In this document: piece by piece, positions 12,653 through 52,715 of the stretch
Layout: each line of letters begins with the position of its first letter
How positions within the stretch are numbered: the stretch's first letter is position 1
IMG/VR virus record: IMGVR_UViG_3300020577_003668
Span: 41,546 to 105,545 of that record
Strand: one strand, 5' to 3'
Length of the DNA: 64,000 nt
Source of the DNA: a virus
Lineage: Duplodnaviria > Caudoviricetes
The notes under the pieces: model-generated
Seen by the model: the letters and a program-made list of their open reading frames with translations, nothing else
Told to the model about the DNA's origin: nothing
Databases searched by the model: none
Translations under genes and position numbers: made by a program

Positions 12653-12786
12653 GACCTTTATACGAAGTAATTAAGGCTGGACGGATACGACGTACTTGAA
12701 CTACGTCCGATAACGACCGCTGAGAATTGGTTGGTCCCTTTTCTACAGCTTCTAGCACGACCACTTAGTTGCTTCCTATAAAGGTT
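12653..12786 (+). ncRNA. Stem-clamped RNA carrying a Ser(UGA) anticodon stem-loop
   Basis: acctttata.gaagtaattaag/cttagttgcttc.tataaaggt clamp; gacgta-CTTGAAC-tacgtc at 12689-12707. Confidence 0.55.
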
Positions 12787-12794
12787 TTGAATTA

Positions 12795-12899
12795 CCCTGT
12801 ATTGCTAATATTGGTAAAGAGCGACCCTTATAAAGTCGTAGTAAGCACTCAATAGATAATTGAGCTTCAATCTTGGTTCGATTCCAAGTGCAGGGACCA
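12795..12899 (+). tRNA. tRNA-Ile(UAU) with very long variable arm
   Basis: ccctgta/tgcaggg + ACCA; loop CT-TAT-AA; ~33-nt variable region. Confidence 0.85.
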
Positions 12900-12903
12900 C
12901 AAC

Positions 12904-12966
12904 AGGCGAAAAGGGTAGCTCCCCTGACAGTGCCTATATCACTGTATAGCCTATCTTATATAGGAA
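12904..12966 (+). promoter_or_regulatory. GAAAAGGGUAGCUCCC pseudoknot motif, copy 1
   Basis: P1 aggc/gcct, P2 ggg/ccc, P3 acagtg/cactgt; loop cctata pairs tatagg at the RBS. Confidence 0.85.
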
Positions 12967-12970
12967 GAGT

Positions 12971-13561
12971 ATGTATACTAAAGAAATAGTCCCATTAAAG
13001 GGCCTAAAAGCTGGCTATGTAATATTCAGAGATCATAGCCACCCCTTAGCCTATGATGATGGCGCTGTATATTTGCACAGACATGTTGCAAGTATTAAGT
13101 TGGGGAGATGGGTTACAAGCGAAGAGTATGTTCATCATATTGATGAAAATAAGTTAAATAATGAACCTTATAATCTAGAAATACTATCTAACTCAGAGCA
13201 TAGTAAGATACATAATCCAAATAATTTAAGTAAGATTATTTGCCCAACATGTAAAAAAGAATTCCAACCCATTAGTTGCAAAATACAATATTGTTCTCCT
13301 AAATGTTACGCAGTAACAACTATTAAAAATACAAAGATAACAAAAGAATTATTAGATGAACTTATACCTAAGACTTCTTGGAGAGATTTAGGTAATATGT
13401 TTGGATATTCAGATAACGGAATAAAGAAGCGTGCTAAGGCTTTAGGGTGTGACACTTCTAATGCAAAGAATAAGCGAATGCCAGCTAGACCGAATGGGGG
13501 GTACACGCTTGATAAGCGTGCTGTACTTGGATCGAAACCAAGAGTTGGTACCAAAGGATAA
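12971..13561 (+). CDS. HNH homing endonuclease
   Basis: YLHRHVA..VHHIDENKLNN..NL..HSKIH plus CxxC..YCS..C. Confidence 0.92.
   Translation: MYTKEIVPLKGLKAGYVIFRDHSHPLAYDDGAVYLHRHVASIKLGRWVTSEEYVHHIDENKLNNEPYNLEILSNSEHSKIHNPNNLSKIICPTCKKEFQPISCKIQYCSPKCYAVTTIKNTKITKELLDELIPKTSWRDLGNMFGYSDNGIKKRAKALGCDTSNAKNKRMPARPNGGYTLDKRAVLGSKPRVGTKG
13480..13553 (+). tRNA. tRNA-Ile(GAU)
   Basis: gccagct/agttggt + ACCA; cacgc-TTGATAA-gcgtg. Confidence 0.88.
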
Positions 13562-13562
13562 T

Positions 13563-13645
13563 GCCCCTGTGACTTATGCAAATTGGCACAGCTACGAGTC
13601 TTAGAAGCTCGGTTTTTCCCGGTTCGAATCCGGGCGGGGGTACCA
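13563..13645 (+). tRNA. tRNA-Leu(UAG), short variable arm, extended acceptor-D linker
   Basis: gcccctg/cgggggt + ACCA; cgagt-CTTAGAA-gctcg. Confidence 0.88.
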
Positions 13646-13705
13646 AATTTTCAGATTGATTTTAGAATCCATCCATAGTATAATTATATTATGGAGGACT
13701 CAAAA

Positions 13706-14329
13706 ATGATCGAAGAATTAGTATACAAAATATGTACAGTAATCGGGGAGGACCCCGATAAAAAAATAAAGAGACCTATAAGAGGTCTACCAGGTATAAC
13801 TGTATTTAGTCTAATAGAGGCGCTATTAGTAGCCGGTACCCTTAATAAGGCTGCTGAATATTTAGGATATACCACCAATCCCGTAAAACAGGCAATTAAA
13901 GAGGTACTAATACCTACCTTTAGTACTAGGCATAAAGAATATGGTAGTGGAGGTGGTCTAACCCCCTGGAAATACGAGTTACTAAAGTGTATTAACTATA
14001 AGTGTTGTGGCCAATGTAATAGAATATTGCCACATAGCGAATATTACTCTAATACGTCTAGAATAGTAGATGGGCTTGCAAGTTTTTGTAAATCGTGTAA
14101 TATAGCTGCTTCAAAATCCCACAAGTATTATATAGTACAAAGAACCCCTTCCTGGTCGGAACTAGACTTAATAGCCGAATTCTATAGAAACTGTCCTATA
14201 GGTTATCACGTAGATCATATATTACCCCTCAGAGGGAATAACGTAAGTGGCTTACACGTATTAAGTAATCTACAATATCTCTCCGCCACAGAAAACATGA
14301 AAAAGGGTAATAAGTTTAGTATTGAATAA
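13706..14329 (+). CDS. HNH homing endonuclease
   Basis: C-terminal HVDHILPLRG..VSGLH..NLQ..EN..KGNK; GGAGG RBS; own promoter 13656-13684. Confidence 0.92.
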   Translation: MIEELVYKICTVIGEDPDKKIKRPIRGLPGITVFSLIEALLVAGTLNKAAEYLGYTTNPVKQAIKEVLIPTFSTRHKEYGSGGGLTPWKYELLKCINYKCCGQCNRILPHSEYYSNTSRIVDGLASFCKSCNIAASKSHKYYIVQRTPSWSELDLIAEFYRNCPIGYHVDHILPLRGNNVSGLHVLSNLQYLSATENMKKGNKFSIE

Positions 14330-14331
14330 TT

Positions 14332-14416
14332 GCCAGAGTGGAGTAACGGTAGCCTCTGCGGACTTAAAATTCGCCGTCCTTGTGGCGTACGGGTTCGATT
14401 CCCGTCTCTGGTACCA
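14332..14416 (+). tRNA. tRNA-Leu(UAA)
   Basis: gccagag/ctctggt + ACCA; loop CT-TAA-AA; long variable arm. Confidence 0.93.
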
Positions 14417-14422
14417 AATAAT

Positions 14423-14498
14423 ACGAAAATAACTCAAATGGCTAGAGTCCCGCCTCTTAAGCGGTGAGATCCTGGTTCGATCCCAGGTTTTCGTACCA
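14423..14498 (+). tRNA. tRNA-Lys(CUU)
   Basis: acgaaaa/ttttcgt + ACCA; loop CT-CTT-AA. Confidence 0.92.
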
Positions 14499-14613
14499 AG
14501 AACAGCGGAGTTGAGACCCGAAAACTAGAACCAACCGTATAAGTTACCTTATACGACTTAGGTGGTCGAATTCTAGCACGATAGTTGAAGCCTTAGACTA
14601 TCCTCTTACGTTT

Positions 14614-14763
14614 CTAAAACCGCGGGCTAGTTTAATAGGAAAAACACCGCGCGCGAAACTCCCTACCCTATGGCAGTATGTACGGTCTGCAGCCGACTAT
14701 ATACGTAAGCAATGGGACATACATGTGAGATACATCTTTCGAAGGATGTGCCCACGGTTTTAG
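14614..14763 (+). ncRNA. tRNA-like RNA with the anticodon arm replaced by a large domain
   Basis: ctaaaaccg.gggc/gccc.cggttttag stem, D arm tagtttaataggaaaaac, T-like arm acatc-tttcgaag-gatgt, no CCA. Confidence 0.6.
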
Positions 14764-14777
14764 GAACTTAACATAAA

Positions 14778-15212
14778 ATGATTACATATACAAAAGGTAA
14801 CGTAGCTTTAGCTAGAGAAGCTCATATTGCTCATGGCTGTAATGCTCAAGGCGTTATGGGTTCTGGCGTAGCTAAGGAAATTCGTAGGCTATACCCTGAT
14901 GCATATACTGCATATCGTATGGCGTACTTGCGTACAGGGCTTGAACTTGGTTCAGTTGTTGTAGCTACTCCTATTGACGGTAAGATCATCTATAACTGCA
15001 TTACTCAGCAGTATTATGGTAATGATGATAAGGTATACGCTTCGTATGAAGCAATTGCTAAATGCTTCGCCTTCATGAACGGTTGGGTAGCGGGCAGAGC
15101 TGCTTTAGCAATTCCACGTATTGGCTGTGGGCTTGGTGGACTTGAATGGGATAAAGTAGAAGCTATTATCTTGAAGGCTGCACGTTACGACGTTGTAGTC
15201 TACGATATTTGA
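14778..15212 (+). CDS. Macro domain protein (ADP-ribose processing, T4 Tk.4-like)
   Basis: AHGCNAQGVMGSGVA and IPRIGCGLGGLEW motifs. Confidence 0.93.
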   Translation: MITYTKGNVALAREAHIAHGCNAQGVMGSGVAKEIRRLYPDAYTAYRMAYLRTGLELGSVVVATPIDGKIIYNCITQQYYGNDDKVYASYEAIAKCFAFMNGWVAGRAALAIPRIGCGLGGLEWDKVEAIILKAARYDVVVYDI

Positions 15213-15267
15213 TCTTGATTTCAGCGCTTAGACAGTATATAATATTGTCTAATCAGTGAGATTTTGA

Positions 15268-15579
15268 ATGACTAAAAAGAGATTTGGCGTGACCGCTATC
15301 ATTTATGATAAGCGTGGTCGGGTTTTGAGTGTTGGTAGTAATAGTTATGTAAAGACCCACCCGCTTCAAGCGGATCACGCTCGTCGTGCCGGGGAACCCA
15401 GTAAGATTTACCTACACGCGGAAATTCATGCGATTACTCGCTGCCGCGACATTTCTAAAGCCTATCGTATGGCTATTTTTAGGTATCTTGAAGATGGTTC
15501 CCCGGCGAGGGCGTGTCCTTGTAATATCTGTCGTAGCGCTATTGACGCTACCCCTATTAAGATTGTTGAGCATACATGA
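15268..15579 (+). CDS. Zinc-dependent nucleotide deaminase fold protein
   Basis: HAE..PCNIC motif; own promoter 15215-15243. Confidence 0.88.
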   Translation: MTKKRFGVTAIIYDKRGRVLSVGSNSYVKTHPLQADHARRAGEPSKIYLHAEIHAITRCRDISKAYRMAIFRYLEDGSPARACPCNICRSAIDATPIKIVEHT

Positions 15580-15773
15580 CCACTAATACTAAAGGTACCC
15601 CCAAGTCTTGTTCGTGTTCCCAATGCCGTAGAGGCAAACACGACGGAGCAAAAGATATTGTAAAAGCAGATGAGCGGGCTTATCGGCACGCTGCAAAAAT
15701 TGCTCTAGCTAATATGGATCTAGAAGAAGGCGTTGTGCTTAATTCTGGGCCCATTGGAAATTACTACGATTAA
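15576..15773 (+). CDS. Hypothetical protein
   Basis: ATGA overlap; CSCSQC motif. Confidence 0.7.
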   Translation: MTTNTKGTPKSCSCSQCRRGKHDGAKDIVKADERAYRHAAKIALANMDLEEGVVLNSGPIGNYYD

Positions 15774-15774
15774 A

Positions 15775-15850
15775 CTCTCATAAGTGTTGCCTGATGGCAT
15801 ACTGCGTTTGGGGCGCAGTGGGGAAGGTTTGAATCCTTCATGGGAGACCA
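15775..15850 (+). tRNA. tRNA-Pro(UGG)
   Basis: ctctcat/atgggag + ACCA; ctgcg-TTTGGGG-cgcag. Confidence 0.9.
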
Positions 15851-15908
15851 ATTAAAAAAATTAACTTGATTTTGTGCTGCATTTCAAGTATAATGATTAC
15901 TAATCAGT

Positions 15909-15984
15909 GGGATTGTGGCGAAAGGGTTATCGCATCACCCTTTTAAGGTGTAAGTTATTGGTTCGAATCCAATCAGTCCTACCA
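15909..15984 (+). tRNA. tRNA-Lys(UUU)
   Basis: gggattg/cagtcct + ACCA; loop CT-TTT-AA; own promoter 15866-15894. Confidence 0.92.
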
Positions 15985-15991
15985 AAGAATT

Positions 15992-16134
15992 ACCGAGCAT
16001 TTTAGCTGGCGCTTCCGACAACCTCCGGATAGGCTACTATGTGTGTTAGAGGTGACGCGAGTAAGTGGCGATCTCAAGGGCCTAGCGTTAATGCAACGTA
16101 TAGGATATCCAAGTATCAAAACCTCGTTCGGTGT
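15992..16134 (+). ncRNA. Putative structured ncRNA
   Basis: Closing stem accgagc/gttcggt; contains acctccggatagg, also seen near 21422. Confidence 0.4.
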
Positions 16135-16207
16135 AGTGAGCTAATTTTGTATTTTTTACGAGTTCACTTTAATCTCTAGACGTTAAAAACCCTTAGTTCG
16201 CTAAGGC

Positions 16208-16280
16208 GTGATCTTATCTCAAGTGGAAGAGAGCAAGGCTGTGAACCTTGTAAGTACGATTTCGACTATCGTAGATCACC
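16208..16280 (+). tRNA. tRNA-His(GUG), lacking encoded G-1 and CCA
   Basis: gtgatct/agatcac, C73; caagg-CTGTGAA-ccttg; preceded by C, followed by CCT. Confidence 0.82.
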
Positions 16281-16300
16281 CCTTAACGAATTAAATTTAT

Positions 16301-16376
16301 TGCGGGCGAGGAAGACGGCAATCCAGCAGGCTCATAACCTGAAAATACTCAGTTCAACTCTGAGGCTCCGCAACCA
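16301..16376 (+). tRNA. tRNA-Met(CAU), initiator-like acceptor
   Basis: tgcggg/tccgca + ACCA; cagg-CTCATAA-cctg. Confidence 0.85.
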
Positions 16377-16595
16377 ATAAATAGCATAGGCGGTAGCATT
16401 ATGCGTAGGTGAGACTCCTACAACTAATTAAAGACTTAAGGTAACGAATATACGTAGGCAGGATGACCGGATCAAGTCGCTTCGGCGAATGAGAGTTCAA
16501 ATCGAACTTGTTCTTGTGAATAAGCCCATGCGCGGTGACGTACTTTTCGCGGAACTGAGGATACTGCGCTGGTAATTGTCGCCCTCATTATTTTA

Positions 16596-16667
16596 GCGGC
16601 TAAGGTGTTTATGGACGCACGTTAGTCTTCCAAACTTAAGGAGTCGGATCGTTACCGACTAGCCGCT
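16596..16667 (+). tRNA. tRNA-Gly(UCC), no encoded CCA
   Basis: gcggcta/tagccgc, U73; loop CT-TCC-AA. Confidence 0.88.
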
Positions 16668-16674
16668 CATCTAT

Positions 16675-16740
16675 AAGACGAAAAGGGTAGCTCCCCTGTC
16701 ATTGCCTATATCAATGACTAGTCTTTTCTTATATAGGAAG
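16675..16740 (+). promoter_or_regulatory. GAAAAGGGUAGCUCCC pseudoknot motif, copy 2
   Basis: P1 aagac/gtctt, P3 gtcattg/caatgac, pseudoknot cctatat/atatagg. Confidence 0.85.
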
Positions 16741-16744
16741 AATT

Positions 16745-17464
16745 ATGACAATAGGAATATACTCTCTTTATTGGGAGAAAGAAGACTTAGTTTATGTTGG
16801 GCTGTCTCAGAATATAGAAGATAGATACAGAGAACATATTCTAAAAATGAGAAAATTAAAGCATTCTAACTATAAAGTGCAGAATGCATATAATTTATAT
16901 GGAATACCCAGACTAGCTATATTAGAAGAATGTAGTATACCAGAATTAAACGATAAAGAAATCTTTTGGACAAAAGAATTTAATTCTATTAATGCTGGGT
17001 TAAATATAGTAGAGGCAGGCGAAGTAGGTTGGGGTGTTAATTCGAATGCATCCAAATATACTAAAAGACAAATATTAAAAGTATTTGCTGTATTATACAA
17101 TACTTTTAATTCTGCCGAACAAATAGCTAGTAGGTGCGGAGTCCCTACGTCTTTTGTGCACACTATCTCTAAAGGAGATAGTCATAAGTGGTTGGAAGAT
17201 GAATACCCGCAACAATTTGCAAAAATGCGTAAAATTGCTGAGTCGAGGGTAAGACAGAAATTTTCTTCTGATATTATCTATATTAAAAACAATATAGTAT
17301 ATCTAAAAAGTCCTACTGGTGAAATAGTAAAAATAGATACCTCTATACGTGAGTTTTGTAGAAAACATAATTTAAACTCAGGCCCTATGTCTGAAGTTAT
17401 AAAGGGCCAGAGAAATCAAAATAAAGGGTGGACTTTACATGCCCATTCTAAGAAAGAGGTATAG
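16745..17464 (+). CDS. GIY-YIG homing endonuclease
   Basis: IGIYSL..VYVGLS..R..H..E..GLN; paralog of 8517, 34387 and 43026. Confidence 0.92.
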   Translation: MTIGIYSLYWEKEDLVYVGLSQNIEDRYREHILKMRKLKHSNYKVQNAYNLYGIPRLAILEECSIPELNDKEIFWTKEFNSINAGLNIVEAGEVGWGVNSNASKYTKRQILKVFAVLYNTFNSAEQIASRCGVPTSFVHTISKGDSHKWLEDEYPQQFAKMRKIAESRVRQKFSSDIIYIKNNIVYLKSPTGEIVKIDTSIREFCRKHNLNSGPMSEVIKGQRNQNKGWTLHAHSKKEV

Positions 17465-17503
17465 TACGACCCGCAAATCAGTACTGCAAATAGAGATATT
17501 TGC

Positions 17504-17588
17504 TCCAAGGTGGCCAGAGTGGTAATGGTCCTCGCTGTTAACGAGATATGGTTAACTACCTTCGTAGGTTCGATCCCTACCCTTGGAG
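17504..17588 (+). tRNA. tRNA-Asn(GUU) with long variable arm, no encoded CCA
   Basis: tccaagg/ccttgga, G73; loop CT-GTT-AA; acceptor extended by agatatttgc/gcaaatatct. Confidence 0.88.
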
Positions 17589-17609
17589 CAAATATCTTTA
17601 GATACTACT

Positions 17610-17755
17610 AATAATTAAGTATTCTTTTGGGTATGAGTGTTAGACGTAACACCTATGGGCCTGTTCTGGCGAGGAACTACCCTGATATAACTGTCTAGTC
17701 GCTATGGGATGAAAGCATCAGACCCCTAAATAGGACATAAGAATACTTAATTATT
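17610..17755 (+). ncRNA. Stem-clamped unknown ncRNA
   Basis: Perfect inverted repeat ataattaagtattctt/aagaatacttaattat enclosing hairpins. Confidence 0.55.
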
Positions 17756-17777
17756 GGGCTTGTAGTATAGAATTATA

Positions 17778-17852
17778 GGGCTGTTCGTATACTGGGTATT
17801 ACTTCTGTTTTGCATGCAGAAAAAGGCGGATCGTAACCGCCACGGTCCACCA
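17778..17852 (+). tRNA. tRNA-Ala(UGC)
   Basis: gggctgt/acggtcc with G3-U70 + ACCA; loop TT-TGC-AT. Confidence 0.92.
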
Positions 17853-17855
17853 TAT

Positions 17856-17922
17856 TAAGCGAAAAGGGTAGCTCCCCCGCTGTTGCCAACTCAACAGCTA
17901 GCTTATTAGTTTCTAGTTGGAG
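17856..17922 (+). promoter_or_regulatory. GAAAAGGGUAGCUCCC pseudoknot motif, copy 3
   Basis: P1 taagc/gctta, P3 gctgttg/caacagc, pseudoknot ccaact/agttgg overlapping GGAG. Confidence 0.85.
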
Positions 17923-17928
17923 ATAAAA

Positions 17929-18429
17929 ATGATTATAAAAGAATTTGTATCTAAGGATACATCTAATAGAACTCGTATGTTTTTAGAACTTCAATGCGAA
18001 GTTTGTAAGACTATATTTAGTAGGCAAAAAAGACTAGTAAATACACATACGTGTTCTGCTAAATGTAGAAATGCCTTTACAGGTATAACTGTAGAATTAC
18101 AGTGTGATAACTGTGGGGTACCTTTCTTTAGAGCTAAATCTAAACTAGATAATTCTAAGTCTGGTAAGTATTTTTGCTGTAGACAGTGTAAAGATACTGC
18201 ACAAACATATATGGAAGAAATAAGGCCGGAACATTATGGTAATGGTAGAGCTTCCTATAGAGAAAAAGCTTTTAGACATTATAAACCTATTTGTACAAAA
18301 TGTGGTTTTTCTAATAGATTAGCCCTAGAAGTTCATCATAAAGACAAAGATCGTAATAATAACGAAATAGATAATTTAGAAATATTATGTGCTAATTGTC
18401 ATAATATTTCTCATGCTCTTTTAGCTTAG
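17929..18429 (+). CDS. HNH endonuclease with zinc-ribbon repeats
   Basis: Multiple CxxC; LEVHHKDKDRNNN..NLEILCANCH. Confidence 0.92.
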   Translation: MIIKEFVSKDTSNRTRMFLELQCEVCKTIFSRQKRLVNTHTCSAKCRNAFTGITVELQCDNCGVPFFRAKSKLDNSKSGKYFCCRQCKDTAQTYMEEIRPEHYGNGRASYREKAFRHYKPICTKCGFSNRLALEVHHKDKDRNNNEIDNLEILCANCHNISHALLA

Positions 18430-20032: not shown

Positions 20033-21364
20033 ATGTCTAGCCTAAATCGTACTGTATATCGCCAAAATATTACTGGTGCCCAAATGGCCCAGAATCATCA
20101 CGGCCTGAAGGTTACTGCCCTATCTCCTGAAGCCAAGCTGACTCGCCTAACCATGGCGCACATGCTTTGGGAAAAGCAATTCTATGTTGACGGACAGAAG
20201 TCCGCCGACCTAATGGCGTCCCTTGTTACCAAGGTGTCACCATCGTTCGTGTCCAACCTGGCTCGCCAGGCGCGCGATAAGTTCAAGCTTCGTCACGTGC
20301 CTCTGCACCTGATGCGTTCACTTGCGAAGTCAGGCGCTCTCAAGGCGGCTGATCTAGCTGAAGTGATCCAACGTCCGGACGAACTTTCCGAGTTCGTTTC
20401 CCTTTACTGGGCCGACAAGAAGCAACCTCTGTCCAACCAGGTTAAGAAGGGTCTTGCACTTGCCTTTGGTAAGTTCAACGAATACCAACTTGCTAAGTGG
20501 GATAAGAACTCCGCAGTGGTATCGCTGCGCGACGTGATGTTCCTAGCACACCCAAAGCCTGCTAACGCAGAGCAAGCTGCCCTTTTCAAGAAGGTAGCAG
20601 ACCAAAAGCTAGAAACCCCTGATACTTGGGAAACCAATCTATCTGCGGGTGCGGATAAGAAGGCTACTTTTACCACCCTAATGCAGGATGGTAAGCTAGG
20701 TGCGCTTGCGTTCCTACGTAACCTTCGTAACATGGTGGAATCTGGTGTATCCGAATCTCTGATTCGTGATTACTCCAAGACAGTTAACACTGATCGTGTT
20801 CTACCTTTCCGTTTCCTTGCGGCAGCCCGCATTGTTCCTCAATTTGAGGACATGCTAGAAGCAATGATGTTCCGTTCCTGCGAAGGTATGGAAAAGCTGC
20901 CAGGCAAGACTAAGCTATACGTAGACGTTTCCGGCTCCATGTATACCCCTAAGGTTAGTGAAAAGTCCGACCTAACACGTCAGGATGCTTCGCTTGCCCT
21001 AGCTATTCTGTGTCGGGAACTATGCGAAGAAGTAGAAATCTACAGCTTCAGCGGAAAATCTCTACGTATTGCCCCTCGCCGAGGGTTTGCTCTAGCAGAC
21101 GCTATCAAGACCAGCCAAGGCTGCTCTGGTACTCAGCTAGGACATAGTCTGAAAGAAACCGAATCTAAAGCTGATCGCATCGTTGTAATCACTGATGAAC
21201 AATCTAGTGATATGCCTTCTGCTCCTTTTGGTGGAGCCAAGGGTTACCTAATCAACGTAGGTAGCTATCAGAACGGCGTTAACCATAACGCCTGGACTAG
21301 CATTACTGGCTTCTCCGAAGCTGTATTTAGCTATATCCAAATGTTCGAACGCGAAGGCGTTTAA
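20033..21364 (+). CDS. Ro60/Rsr-like TROVE + vWA domain RNA-binding protein
   Basis: LWEKQFY, LRHVP, QRPDEL, FNEYQLAKW, LRDVMFLAHPKP, TWET, LRNLRNM, LPFRF, MIDAS DVSGSM and ITDEQ. Confidence 0.95.
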   Translation: MSSLNRTVYRQNITGAQMAQNHHGLKVTALSPEAKLTRLTMAHMLWEKQFYVDGQKSADLMASLVTKVSPSFVSNLARQARDKFKLRHVPLHLMRSLAKSGALKAADLAEVIQRPDELSEFVSLYWADKKQPLSNQVKKGLALAFGKFNEYQLAKWDKNSAVVSLRDVMFLAHPKPANAEQAALFKKVADQKLETPDTWETNLSAGADKKATFTTLMQDGKLGALAFLRNLRNMVESGVSESLIRDYSKTVNTDRVLPFRFLAAARIVPQFEDMLEAMMFRSCEGMEKLPGKTKLYVDVSGSMYTPKVSEKSDLTRQDASLALAILCRELCEEVEIYSFSGKSLRIAPRRGFALADAIKTSQGCSGTQLGHSLKETESKADRIVVITDEQSSDMPSAPFGGAKGYLINVGSYQNGVNHNAWTSITGFSEAVFSYIQMFEREGV

Positions 21365-22369: not shown

Positions 22370-22704
22370 GATTGTCGTAATTCGGATCAAGCAGATGTGG
22401 GCCAGACGGGGCTTCGCCGCCCCCACCTCCACCAGTTAGTATAGAGTATAGATGCGCATCTAGTAATAGGCTAAGACCTAACAGAAATGTTCTCTGTACT
22501 AACTAATGGGGGTGAATATGTTTTCGATGGCGCAAATAAGTGAGATACGCGACACGGTAGGCGATGACCGTTAATCAAGCAAAACCTTTAAATGCAGCAA
22601 ACGATGCATACTTCGGAGAAGAACGCCTAGCGGCGTAATCCCGATGTAGGAGCTATCCTATATCAAACAAAATAGTTGGAGCGGCCCTGTCCATAAACAG
22701 GGCT
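22370..22704 (+). ncRNA. ssrA: Permuted two-piece tmRNA
   Basis: Acceptor piece ends cacctcc-A-CCA (22434); hairpin spacer; coding piece starts GGGGGTG (22508) with G3-U70; tag AANDAYFGEERLAA* at 22594-22638. Confidence 0.92.
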
Positions 22705-41002: not shown

Positions 41003-42019
41003 AGCCCGATCAAGTCTTGCCCTCTTAATAAGTAATTATTAAGTAATTAAACTCGCTCAATTGCTGGAAGGCCTTCGGGATAATCAGCAGCCAGAATAGG
41101 TAGGAATACTTATAAATGGTTCAGAGACTGACAGTATTTCCAGAACGGAAATAGCTGCGATACTAGAAATAGTATAACACGGCGAGCATCTTTTACGTAT
41201 TCAATCCACATATGGGAATACAACATGAATGAATTAACAAAAGAATATTTTCTATCTCTAAGAGAACAAGGTCTAACTTTTAAACAAATAGGAGAACTAT
41301 TTGGGTTAACGGAGAGACAAGTCAACTATAGAACAGTTAATAAATGGGGTTTAGATTATTCAAAGAAGAAAAAACTAAATGAGTTCTTCTTTAGTAGTGG
41401 TACTAAAGCTTCCTATTATTGGGCAGGTATGCTGGCTGCGGATGGTTGGATAGAGGGAGATAGGAATAGAATTGGTTTAGCTTTACAGAAACAAGATATA
41501 GATCATTTATATAAGTTTAAGGAAGCAGTATCTTCAGAACACGATGTATGCCCATTCATGAATGGTAGTGCATATAGAATTAGATTTAATAGTATACAAA
41601 TGGTGGAAGATTTAAAAAATATTTTTAATATTACACCAGCAAAGACGCATACTTATAGTATGCCTTTATTCGAAGATACTTATCTAATGTTAGAATTCCT
41701 TAGAGGATATATAGATGGAGATGGTCACTTACAGAAAACGGATTCTGGTAAAGTAGCACTACATCTTTGTTCTGCTAATAGATTATTTCTGGTAGAGTTT
41801 AAAGAAATATGTGAATACCTACTAGCTAGAACTATTAACCAAGAAGTAAATCTTAATGTTAATTCAAAAGGACAGGTATATACTATCAGATTAGTTTTGG
41901 AGGATAGCAAAGAAATTATAAAACTTCTTTATGCTAATTCTACGGAAAAAACTAGATTAAATAGAAAATATATAACCGCTTTATGTGTATTAAAAGATGA
42001 AGGTATAGTCCAATAAAAG
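41003..42019 (+). mobile_element. Group I intron (IA2-like) in the D10 helicase gene
   Basis: Exon ends in U, intron ends in G; IGS gtctt-gccct (41014-41023) pairs both exons; P aattgctggaa, Q aatcagcag, R gttcagagact, S aaggtatagtcc. Confidence 0.93.
41225..42016 (+). CDS. Intron-encoded LAGLIDADG homing endonuclease
   Basis: WAGMLAADG and FLRGYIDGDG motifs. Confidence 0.93.
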   Translation: MNELTKEYFLSLREQGLTFKQIGELFGLTERQVNYRTVNKWGLDYSKKKKLNEFFFSSGTKASYYWAGMLAADGWIEGDRNRIGLALQKQDIDHLYKFKEAVSSEHDVCPFMNGSAYRIRFNSIQMVEDLKNIFNITPAKTHTYSMPLFEDTYLMLEFLRGYIDGDGHLQKTDSGKVALHLCSANRLFLVEFKEICEYLLARTINQEVNLNVNSKGQVYTIRLVLEDSKEIIKLLYANSTEKTRLNRKYITALCVLKDEGIVQ

Positions 42020-49782: not shown

Positions 49783-50206
49783 GCACATATGCTAGTAGTG
49801 CTAGTCAGATGTACTTAACATTAGAGACTCTTGTGCAAAATGCAGTAAAGAATAGCGGCGAACGTAAAGTATTAATTGGGAAGATGATGAATGCTTTGAA
49901 TAAAACCGCGGAGGAGATGATAAATTTAATAGGTTTATTAAATTTGGTAGATTCATATATTATACAGGATAACATTACATGACTAAACATATTCATATTA
50001 TTAATGCAGATTCATCTTCTTGGAAAGTAAAAGTACTGATACAAGATAAGTGGTTTAAGTTCGATGAAGATGGGAAAGTACTACCATGGGATAATACTTG
50101 GAAAACTGTAGAAACTATTGCACTAAGTAATCCTGGCCAGTTATTAACGAAGTATATCACTAATAGTAGACGTTTAGTAATTGAGGAAGATGGTGTAAAT
50201 ACATGA
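49779..50206 (+). CDS. Two short hypothetical ORFs (49779-49982, 49979-50206)
   Basis: Chain of ATGA overlaps between dut and nrdJ. Confidence 0.65.
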
Positions 50207-51540
50207 TTGATGGGGTGTATGAAACATTCATTGCTAAGTCTAGATACGCAAGATATTTAGACGAAGAGGCCAGGCGAGAAAATTGGTCGGAAACTACTAA
50301 CCGATATCTAGAATTCATACAAGAACACCTTCTAGAAAAGCACGAATATCTTATCCCTGAAGATGTCCTGGAAGAACTACGGGGTGCTATTCTTAACAAC
50401 GAAGTATATCCTAGTATGCGTGCATTGATGACTGCTGGTGAAGCTCTGGAGCGAGATAATACCGCGGGATTCAATTGTTCTTACTTGCCTGTTGATGATA
50501 TTAAATCATTCGACGAAGCAATGTATATCCTTATGTGCGGCGTTGGCGTGGGCTTCAGCGTGGAAAGGCAGTATATTTGTAAGCTTCCAGAAGTACCAGA
50601 TAGAATCTATCCTTCCGAGAGCTATATCATGGTACACGACTCTAAGGAAGGCTGGGCTAAAGCGCTACGACAACTCATTGCCTTACTGTATTCTGGTGAA
50701 GCTGCCAAATGGGATGTTAGTGAGGTTAGACCTGCAGGCGCAAGACTTAAAACTTTTGGAGGCCGCTCTTCAGGACCAGGTCCTTTGGTCGACTTATTTA
50801 GATTCGTTACAAAAATATTTAAAGGCGCGACAGGACGAAAACTAACCTCCCTAGAATGTCATGATATCATGTGCAAGATCGGCGAAGTTGTTGTAGTTGG
50901 CGGTGTTCGCCGATCCGCAATGATCTCGCTATCTAATCTGTCTGATGATCGTATGCGTCATGCTAAGTCAGGTGCATGGTGGGAGGCTAATCCACAACGT
51001 GCTTTAGCAAATAACAGTGCTTGCTATACTGAACGTCCTGAAGTGGGCGTATTTATGCAGGAGTGGTTATCTCTATATGAGTCAAAGTCTGGTGAAAGAG
51101 GAATCTTTAATAGAGAAGCAGCTACTAAAGTGGCTGCTAGGAACGGACGAAGAGAAACGGAAGGGCATGAATTTGGCACTAATCCATGTTCCGAAATTAT
51201 CTTACGGCCATATCAGTTTTGCAACCTATCAACAAGCGTTGTAAGAGCTACAGATACACGAGAGGATTTACTTAGGAAAGTCCGTCTAGCAGCGATATTT
51301 GGTACGTATCAGTCCACTCTAACTAATTTTCCTTACTTAAGAAAAATCTGGCAAAAGAATACAGAGGAAGAGCGTCTATTAGGCGTTTCAATGACTGGAC
51401 CTCTAGATAATCCCCTGCTTAATAATCCAGATGATCCTGGGTTAGAGAAATTACTAGAAGAGCTGAAAGCTGAAGCTGTACGCGTCAACAAGGTGCTTGC
51501 CATGCAAATTGGCATTCCTCAGGCGACGGCTGTAACGGCT
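50203..51540 (+). CDS. nrdJ: Class II (B12-dependent) ribonucleotide reductase, exon 1
   Basis: PSMRAL, NCSY, GGVRRSA, TNPCSEI, FCNL; ends ATAVTA. Confidence 0.94.
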
Positions 51541-52715
51541 TAACAAAATTTAGACTTGAAATTTTTCAACAACTGTTATATAATTATTATACTGGTATAA
51601 AAATACAGGAATAATAAAATGATAGATGTAGAAAAAGTATTAAATGAATATGGTATTGACAAGGCTAGAGACCTATTTTTAAGAGAAGGATATACTCTTA
51701 CTCAGTTTCATTTAGAAACTAAATTAAGTACTAGTAAAAATAGAACTTCGCAGAGAGTGTATGAAGAAGTATATAGAATACTCGGTATTACCGAGATTCC
51801 TTATAAAGAAGATACACAGCCTGTTAGAAAATTTAAATTAGAATTTGATAGAGTCTCCGGCAAGTACTGGGAGTCTGACTATATAGTAGAGGTTCTACTA
51901 GATAAGCTACAAAATCCAATACTTAATAAGGCGGAGAATAGAGAGAGATACGTAATAGGTTTCCCTAAACACCCTAATTCGGATCCTACGTCTAATCAAA
52001 TTAAAGCACATATTGTTCAATGGGAAATATTAAATGAACAATATGTGCCTAGTAATCATTGGGTAATACCCGTAGATGATGATTATACTAACTTAGATAT
52101 GGATAACTGGGTTTTGGTAAATACGACCGAATTTAAGTCAGATAGATTTACCAGTGAAGGTAACCCTTCATATAAGCACGGAAAATCAGGAAGACATAAG
52201 TTAGGCGGCTGGGCGTTAATTAGTAAAAATAGTATTAATAAGCATAGATTCTGTACAAGATGTAATACAGATAAAGGTTTAATAGTGCATCATATTATTA
52301 ACTATCATCTATTTACTAATCCCATGGAAGCGCATAATATAGATAATTTATTAGTATTATGCCAAAGTTGTCATGCCAAAATACATCTAACTAATCTAAA
52401 TATAAAGGCCCTTATTGAGGAAACTCAATATAGCAAATTACTTAAATTGCTGGAAACTCTCAAGAGCCAAGTTCCAGACTCCATGAAGGAAACTTACGTG
52501 GACGTAGAAAAGCAACTTGGACTAACAGACAATCAGCAGCCAAGCACCTAAAGAAAAGTATCTAAGGTGAAGGTTCAACGACTATCCATTTATGGAGTAG
52601 GACCGAAGACGGTTCGAAAAAGGTAATACCCTATTAATTATGGGTAATGATATAGTCTGAGCTATATAGAAATATATAGAGAGAATACGGAATCGGTATT
52701 CTCGTAACATAACTG
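51541..52715 (+). mobile_element. Group I intron in nrdJ
   Basis: Exon ends in U, intron ends in G; P aaattgctggaa, Q aatcagcagcc, R gttcaacgacta, S atgatatagtct; splicing restores AVTA|IKPEGT. Confidence 0.93.
51619..52551 (+). CDS. Intron-encoded HNH endonuclease
   Basis: CTRC..VHHI..NLLVLCQSCHAKIH; the 3' end runs through the P and Q elements. Confidence 0.9.
   Translation: MIDVEKVLNEYGIDKARDLFLREGYTLTQFHLETKLSTSKNRTSQRVYEEVYRILGITEIPYKEDTQPVRKFKLEFDRVSGKYWESDYIVEVLLDKLQNPILNKAENRERYVIGFPKHPNSDPTSNQIKAHIVQWEILNEQYVPSNHWVIPVDDDYTNLDMDNWVLVNTTEFKSDRFTSEGNPSYKHGKSGRHKLGGWALISKNSINKHRFCTRCNTDKGLIVHHIINYHLFTNPMEAHNIDNLLVLCQSCHAKIHLTNLNIKALIEETQYSKLLKLLETLKSQVPDSMKETYVDVEKQLGLTDNQQPST

Follow-up and report, generated by a model that had tools for sequence, protein, structure and literature searches.

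What do three endonuclease genes of one phage gain from an identical RNA sequence directly before their start codons, and why does that sequence follow tRNA genes? This question is raised by a stretch of 64,000 nucleotides (hereafter the window; positions 41,546 to 105,545 of IMG/VR record IMGVR_UViG_3300020577_003668), which makes up the right-hand part of a phage genome that is complete at 105.5 kb and carries direct terminal repeats. A first-pass annotation, made from the sequence of the window, had described three copies of a pseudoknotted RNA motif that linked tRNA 3′ ends to homing endonuclease genes, and had suggested a translational switch, a processing signal, or a ribozyme. We found that the motif is a portable, covarying, structured RNA that lies over the ribosome-binding site of nuclease genes in many phages. 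With a probability of roughly 0.68, each copy acts in cis as the 5′ leader of the messenger RNA (mRNA) for a free-standing homing endonuclease and serves as a portable brake on its translation.

Three leader copies precede endonuclease genes of unrelated families

Exactly three copies of the 18-mer CGAAAAGGGTAGCTCCCC are present in the window, at 12907, 16679, and 17860, always on the + strand and against a chance expectation of 0.02. The invariant core that the first-pass annotation had placed before endonuclease starts is thus real. The remainder of the 105.5-kb genome contains no additional copy, as judged by a pattern search and a covariance model (R1, described below). The three copies can be aligned over about 80 nucleotides, and each runs up to an endonuclease start codon. 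Every copy forms a three-way junction of the helices P1, P2, and P3, the last of which carries the loop L3, and is followed by a hairpin, P4.

12795..12899, +, tRNA-like element recognized by eye, possibly tRNA-Ile(UAU), with a long variable arm (~33 nucleotides), a UAU anticodon-like loop, and an ACCA end
12904..12952, +, junction of leader copy 1 (R1, 70.0 bits, E 1.7e-15)
Parts of copy 1, +, from the sequence: P1 12904-12907/12949-12952; GAAAA 12908-12912; P2 12913-12924; P3 12927-12932/12940-12945; L3 CCUAUAU 12933-12939; AUA 12946-12948
12954..12968, +, P4 of copy 1, UCUU[AUAUAGG]AAGA, with loop 12958-12964 pairing with L3; AUG at 12971
12971..13561, +, HNH_3 homing-type endonuclease, 196 amino acids (Pfam PF13392, E 4.2e-10; HNH endonuclease in PHROGs)
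16596..16668, +, tRNA-Gly(UCC) (ARAGORN, Rfam)
16675..16725, +, junction of leader copy 2 (R1, 73.7 bits)
Parts of copy 2, +, from the sequence: P1 16675-16679/16721-16725; GAAAA 16680-16684; P2 16685-16696; P3 16699-16704/16712-16717; L3 CCUAUAU 16705-16711; CUA 16718-16720
16726..16742, +, P4 of copy 2, UUCUU[AUAUAGG]AAGAA, with loop 16731-16737 pairing with L3; AUG at 16745
16745..17464, +, GIY-YIG endonuclease with a NUMOD-like DNA-binding tail, 239 amino acids (Pfam PF01541, E 3e-5; PF22083, E 6.5e-5)
17778..17852, +, tRNA-Ala(UGC) (ARAGORN)
17856..17905, +, junction of leader copy 3 (R1, 76.3 bits)
Parts of copy 3, +, from the sequence: P1 17856-17860/17901-17905; GAAAA 17861-17865; P2 17866-17877; P3 17880-17885/17892-17897; L3 CCAACU 17886-17891; CUA 17898-17900
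17912..17923, +, P4 of copy 3, UCU[AGUUGG]AGA, with loop 17915-17920 pairing with L3; AUG at 17929
17929..18429, +, HNH endonuclease, 166 amino acids, whose end overlaps the start of tRNA-Thr at 18415 (Pfam PF01844, E 8.8e-6)

P1 starts 5 nucleotides past the ACCA end in copy 1, 7 nucleotides past tRNA-Gly in copy 2, and 4 nucleotides past tRNA-Ala in copy 3. The reported proximity to tRNA 3′ ends therefore holds for two tRNAs called by ARAGORN, while the third end was recognized only by eye, as the element at 12795..12899 was called neither by ARAGORN nor by the Rfam tRNA model. The Shine-Dalgarno sequence of copy 1, GGAAGA, covers the end of the P4 loop and the 3′ strand of P4; that of copy 3, GGAG, occupies 17919-17922. 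The predicted service to unrelated nuclease families was borne out by the HNH_3, GIY-YIG, and HNH genes of this phage. Further tRNA signals lie around the first of these genes: a tRNA at 13480-13550 (+; Rfam, 39.1 bits), missed by ARAGORN, overlaps the last 80 nucleotides of the HNH_3 open reading frame, and a weaker tRNA-like stretch (20 bits) occupies 13563-13635 (+).

The junction covaries across phages

A 17-mer of the core was found in at least 120 IMG/VR stretches, and nearly all of the matches listed have the same layout, with a start codon at the end. The statistics below are based on 90 to 101 distinct copies from more than 100 IMG/VR phage contigs, a sample seeded with the exact 17-mer. 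They were arranged in three alignments: A3, of the 90 seeded copies; A4, of 101 copies, which was model based; and A5, of 73 P4 hairpins. The covariance model R1, built from the 90-copy alignment, recovers all copies at 45 to 88 bits.

Across the 90 copies, we found double compensatory changes in P1 (five pairs), in P3 (six pairs), and in the contact between L3 and the ribosome-binding site (six pairs). In A3, 91.1% of the cells were paired, and sliding the partners lowered this to 49% or less; the covariation score of 0.552, as compared to at most 0.143 in these controls, was reached by none of 500 shuffles. The corresponding figures for A4 were 95.9% and 0.634, while the slid-partner controls over both alignments never exceeded 52% paired cells or a score of 0.15. 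Thus, the stems listed in the first-pass annotation are correct, and they covary in copies from other phages.

The stems other than P2 vary freely, whereas about 25 bases in the junction strands and P2 are nearly fixed. Over the 101 copies, the strand GAAAA was present in 96, (C/A)UA in all 101, and the G after the U in 97; the closing pair of P1 was C-G in 82. Rare variants of P2 carry G-U pairs and compensatory GAG/CUC changes. Searching whole phage records with R1 also detected diverged copies in which the core is altered to GAAA, GAACA, or GAAAAA, and in which P2 is GAG/CUC with the loop UAGCU or UUGCAA or has CCUC in place of CCCC. The canonical form of the core is nevertheless by far the most frequent: a scan with the GGG/CCCC stem fixed and the second P2-loop base altered gave no match, and one for the CCUC variant gave just four. 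In about 20 copies (for example, L009, L010, L013, L018, and L020), ACCAA follows P1 directly and resembles a tRNA acceptor end with its CCA.

A kissing loop lies over the ribosome-binding site

The first-pass annotation had described a pseudoknot overlapping the Shine-Dalgarno sequence. The masking and its covariation were confirmed; the contact itself, however, is a kissing loop. The P3 loop pairs with the entire 6- to 7-nucleotide loop of P4, so that the contact is made from loop to loop. The strands flanking the P4 loop are complementary (for example, AUCU/AGAU, ACCU/AGGU, GUCU/AGAC, UGCA/UGCA, GACAC/GUGUC, and GAUAU/AUAUC). The P4 stem averaged 4.23 base pairs (bp) over 101 copies as compared to 1.5 to 1.7 bp with shifted partners, and shuffling the flanks gave a mean of 2.99 bp with a maximum of 3.3 in 200 trials. 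In A5, the four inner pairs of P4 were paired in 76 to 93% of the hairpins, and the covariation score of 0.423, against at most 0.191 in controls, was reached by none of 500 shuffles.

The pairing between L3 and the P4 loop comprises 6 bp in 77 of 101 copies and takes in the first GG of the Shine-Dalgarno sequence. In 49 of 89 copies, the Shine-Dalgarno tetramer begins with the penultimate base of the loop, and the start codon lies 1 to 5 nucleotides past P4 in 80 of 89. The Shine-Dalgarno sequence is consequently split between the kissing-loop helix and the P4 stem. Rough energies were −5.7 kcal/mol for the loop-loop duplex, −1.3 kcal/mol for P4 alone, and −7.2 kcal/mol for the Shine-Dalgarno sequence with the anti-Shine-Dalgarno of the 16S 3′ end. 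P4 alone would thus be too weak to block the ribosome, and repression would depend on the junction domain that holds the kissing loop.

The leader is phage specific and accompanies endonucleases of at least five folds

To characterize the genes behind the leader, the downstream proteins of 91 distinct copies were compared with Pfam (E up to 0.001). The following counts are per family and give no exact fraction of nucleases.

Endonuclease_7, 11 members
HNH_3, 11 members
GIY-YIG, 4 members
HNH, 3 members
HNH_2, 3 members
MUG113 and T5orf172, 2 members each
PD-(D/E)XK_5, 1 member
LAGLIDADG, 1 member
DUF559, 1 member

NUMOD or AP2 domains are also present in some of these proteins. Endonuclease families dominate the PHROG matches as well: 57 of the 91 proteins match one endonuclease VII PHROG, and the remaining frequent PHROGs are mostly HNH or homing endonucleases. 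Free-standing endonucleases representing five or more nuclease folds are thus encoded behind the leader.

Bacterial and archaeal genomes totaling 596 Gb contained the exact 17-mer 21 times, which is about chance level, and the full motif in just one of these cases, a 4-kb contig of a metagenome bin. The leader is thus phage specific and essentially absent from bacterial genomes. The core had no match in E. coli genomes. Among 50,697 GenBank phage records searched by short-query blastn, the canonical copy was found only in Escherichia phage EP_H11 (OP688485.1, 22494-22576; L141, 2994-3076; 83 bits). It stands before a 303–amino acid protein with no Pfam or PHROG match, which may represent an undescribed nuclease family or another type of cargo. 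This copy makes the leader directly testable in E. coli. Blastn matches in Edwardsiella and Dinoroseobacter phages were rejected as leader copies, as they consist of just a GGGUAGCUCCCC hairpin.

Linkage to tRNA genes is local, and the leader lies in strain-variable modules

A general link of the element to tRNA 3′ ends was not upheld when we classified 96 distinct upstream contexts. A full sigma-70–type promoter, TTGACA-N17-TATAAY, ending 4 to 10 nucleotides before P1, was present in 34. The other contexts included a TATAAT box (8), a T4-late-like TATAAATA (7), a T-run (10), and a tRNA (7 to 9). Linkage to tRNAs is therefore local and no property of the leader. The promoter-like boxes, TATAAATA included, end 3 to 12 nucleotides before P1; because they end upstream of P1, the transcripts contain the complete fold. 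The feature common to promoter and tRNA settings is that P1 would lie at or beside the RNA 5′ end. The phage has its own promoter type, TTGATT-17-TATAAT, which occurs five times between 12 and 19 kb, and neither these promoters nor any other promoter-like site directly precede the three leaders of the window. The reported lack of an own promoter thus applies to the three copies of this phage and fails elsewhere, where 34 of the 96 contexts have a full one.

In wastewater runs, contigs of relatives of the phage lack whole modules, or have others in their place, whose ends touch the leaders: from 12654 to 13479, from 16668 to 17610 (with 603 other letters between), and from 17760 to 18414. Each of these stretches contains a leader, its nuclease gene, and the neighboring tRNA. 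Such strain-variable stretches fit mobile cassettes and make the tRNA cluster a mosaic; this evidence is at the DNA level and is silent on RNA processing.

The leader resembles a rewired form of the int-alpA motif

At gathering thresholds and at E up to 10, Rfam 15 gave no match for the leaders. No characterized family thus accounts for them. We found no description of the leader in the literature, a search that included its exact sequence; a survey of 10,006 phage RNAs (PMC10690425), whose supplementary tables lay outside this search, may contain it. A tRNA or tRNA-like structure was rejected, as the leaders were called neither by ARAGORN nor by Rfam. The hammerhead was rejected because the junction strands GAAAA, U, and UA include no CUGANGA strand.

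The closest likeness that we found is to int-alpA (RF02996), an orphan candidate RNA typed as "sRNA" in Rfam and reportedly derived from a survey (PMC5737381) whose main text does not name it. The consensus of int-alpA runs P1-UA-hairpin A-GAAAA-hairpin B-CU-P1′ (Rfam strands cC-UA-Gcc, ggC-GAAAA-GCGGG, and CCCGC-CU-Gg), while the leader runs P1-GAAAA-P2-U-P3-UA-P1′. Going around the junction, GAAAA, (C)U, and UA follow one another in the same order in the two RNAs, and the G-C pairs that close the helices at the junction also agree in polarity. Moreover, hairpin A of the int-alpA copy L190 is GGGUAGCUCCC, which is the P2 of the leader. Each of the two RNAs also has a hairpin loop that can pair with purine-rich sequence in or close to the ribosome-binding site; in int-alpA, this is the CCuU loop of hairpin B, which is complementary to an AgGG of the tail. 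The two differ in where the junction is open, since the open helix of int-alpA lies between CU and UA, with the two hairpins flanking GAAAA, whereas P1 of the leader lies between UA and GAAAA. The anti-ribosome-site loop of the leader also belongs to a different arm, and its partner is a hairpin loop, that of P4, instead of a single strand. Because the strands, their cyclic order, and the closing pairs match, the leader is probably a circular permutation of the int-alpA junction, and it appears to be a rewired form of this cataloged but uncharacterized motif.

The RF02996 model itself (gathering score, 35.8 bits) matched nothing in the window region, the whole phage genome, or 17 loci with canonical and variant copies (E up to 10), and five phage records rich in the motif likewise gave no match (E up to 1). 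The search works, because the same model matches 33 of 151 Pseudomonadota genomes. The two RNAs also differ in where they live: int-alpA is common in Pseudomonadota chromosomes, and the downstream proteins of the bacterial copies examined have no nuclease domain, whereas the leader is found in phages before homing endonucleases.

A different parallel is offered by the T-even phages, in which hairpins sequester the ribosome-binding sites of the homing endonuclease genes I-TevI, I-TevII, I-TevIII, segB, and Aeh1 mobE; segB is likewise situated in a tRNA gene region (PMC3014915). As in the leader, the Shine-Dalgarno sequence of a homing endonuclease is buried in mRNA structure, and nuclease output in the T-even case is low (PMC3014915). 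The T-even hairpins, however, are simple, gene specific, and without shared sequence, whereas the leader is one conserved four-helix fold shared, across many phage lineages, by nucleases of five folds or more. Furthermore, I-TevI has a late promoter inside its hairpin that relieves repression, while the promoters of the leader lie upstream of the whole fold.

Some cobalamin riboswitches use a loop of the sensor domain that pairs with the loop of a downstream hairpin holding the ribosome-binding site. The loop-loop read-out of the leader is alike, but there is no similarity in sequence or junction and no Rfam match to these riboswitches.

A probable portable brake on nuclease translation and its alternatives

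Homing endonucleases are toxic and selfish and spread among phages, and their restraint in new genomes is known just for a few ad hoc hairpins of T-even phages. We favor the brake on translation, which follows the known logic of the T-even genes (PMC3014915). The three-way junction would present the 6- to 7-nucleotide P3 loop to P4, which carries the Shine-Dalgarno sequence in such a way that its first GG closes the loop and the next bases open the 3′ strand. With the loops paired over their full length, P3, the loop-loop helix, and P4 could stack as one long helix and bury the ribosome-binding site. Because the loop pair is free to change its sequence, the brake would be programmable and self-contained, and it could move with any nuclease gene into any transcription unit, whether behind a strong promoter or in a tRNA operon. 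The likely result would be low or delayed synthesis of the nuclease. One conserved, portable fold serves nucleases of at least five folds in many uncultured phage lineages and one cultured coliphage, and its rewritable pairing loops on a fixed scaffold offer a design for synthetic translational locks. The leader fold also suggests a function for int-alpA, and it would be a case of natural circular permutation among cis-regulatory RNAs.

Several observations count against this reading. The invariance of the core is partly an artifact of construction, because the sample was seeded with the exact 17-mer, and 34 of the 96 upstream contexts come from one phage lineage. P4 of copy 3 is weak, with just 3 bp. 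The minimum-free-energy folds of the three copies were no better than those of shuffled sequences (z, −0.5 to −1.1), because the program cannot model the loop-loop contact. An endonuclease VII–like homing-type gene of the same phage (13691-14329, +) has its own TTGATT-17-TATAAT promoter (13656-13684) and no leader, so the leader is not used by every nuclease gene of the phage. Parts of the phage were found in two metatranscriptome and two probable DNA runs as contigs, which carry no information on RNA ends, cleavage, or levels. Last, the conserved junction and the nearly invariant P2 hint at a further input, because a single hairpin suffices for repression, as in T4.

This last point leads to a conditional switch, in which the junction would respond to a small molecule, to a protein of the host or the phage, or to another leader copy that pairs through the self-complementary AGCU of the P2 loop. 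The kissing loop would form or open accordingly, and nuclease synthesis would be timed and not just damped. The roughly 25 nearly fixed bases amid variable stems are the pattern of an aptamer; the recurrence of the same junction in two chain connectivities argues that the fold itself is selected; and the read-out resembles that of the cobalamin riboswitches described above. Four of six distinct P2 loops hold a palindrome of 4 to 6 nucleotides (AGCU, UGCA/UUGCAA, GAUC, and UAAUUA), although these statistics come from only six variants, two of which (UUGCUC and UCGCUC) are not palindromic. The conserved junction and kissing-loop platform are compatible with a riboswitch; however, no Rfam riboswitch matches the leader, we found no alternative fold and no conserved "on" structure, there is no candidate ligand or partner, and the downstream genes offer no metabolic clue. 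We therefore regard such a switch as possible but rather unlikely. The strict conservation of the junction and P2, together with the two connectivities, may nonetheless mean that the leader is more than a brake and responds to a ligand, a protein, or its own concentration.

Still more tentatively, the GAAAA/U/UA junction might be a sensor of a ligand or factor, or a concentration sensor that dimerizes through the P2 loop, which exists in at least two circular permutations and gates, through a freely reprogrammable kissing loop, the translation of phage nucleases as well as of the int-alpA–linked genes of bacterial mobile elements. If this doubtful extension were true, the junction module would be a new riboswitch-like class dedicated to mobile DNA.

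An improbable explanation is that the leader acts mainly as a cap or insulator, whose folded 5′ end protects the mRNA from 5′-end–dependent decay and shields the translation start, with masking of the Shine-Dalgarno sequence being secondary. E. coli mRNAs are stabilized by 5′-terminal stem-loops, and P1 is suitably placed, 4 to 10 nucleotides past the −10 box in at least 42 of the 96 contexts and 3 to 8 nucleotides past tRNA 3′ ends in others. A simple hairpin would suffice for such a role, however, and it leaves both P4 and the covarying loop contact with the ribosome-binding site unexplained.

The self-cleaving ribozyme or ribonuclease processing signal of the first-pass annotation, which would free the nuclease mRNA from tRNA precursors, fared worse, and we consider it very unlikely. 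It would account for the position of the three window copies directly 3′ of tRNAs and for the subgroup with ACCAA after P1, and circular permutation is common among small self-cleaving ribozymes. Nevertheless, at E up to 10 the leaders matched none of the models for hammerhead, twister, twister-sister, pistol, hatchet, and HDV-like ribozymes, the hammerhead strand is missing from the junction, and the leader is not itself called a tRNA. Most copies, moreover, start at the first bases of a transcript, where cleavage would be needless.

A DNA-level element common to mobile cassettes, such as a homing, recombination, or protein-binding site that needs no RNA, is hardly credible: although the core is nearly invariant and relatives differ by whole cassettes bordered at leaders (for example, the joint at 16668), the compensatory changes in four helices and in the loop contact with the ribosome-binding site lie on one strand and always before a start codon, which argues for mRNA and not duplex DNA, and nucleases of five folds would not share a target.

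Other features of the phage

The phage is probably T5-like, judging from its gene content and layout. The window contains a large tRNA cluster (22 ARAGORN calls and additional Rfam ones) and encodes a DnaB-like helicase, a family-A DNA polymerase, an SbcC-like protein, and a ribonucleotide reductase. A megablast search of a 6-kb region against GenBank phages gave no match, and the phage or near relatives are present in river, wastewater, and activated-sludge data sets.

Within the tRNA cluster, we found a permuted transfer-messenger RNA gene of the two-piece type (22373-22638, +; Rfam RF04321, 96.7 bits) and a 443–amino acid protein with TROVE and Ro60 vWA domains, an orthologue of Ro60 (20033-21364, +). 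Two other phages with the leader (L167 and L137) show weak Y-RNA–like (YrlA) signals in their tRNA clusters. A macro-domain protein (14778-15212, +) and a small cytidine/dCMP deaminase-like protein (15268-15579, +) are encoded between tRNA genes. A group I intron (52387-52679, +; Rfam RF00028, 79.6 bits) lies directly 3′ of the ribonucleotide reductase open reading frame at 50203-51543 and probably splits the ribonucleotide reductase gene.

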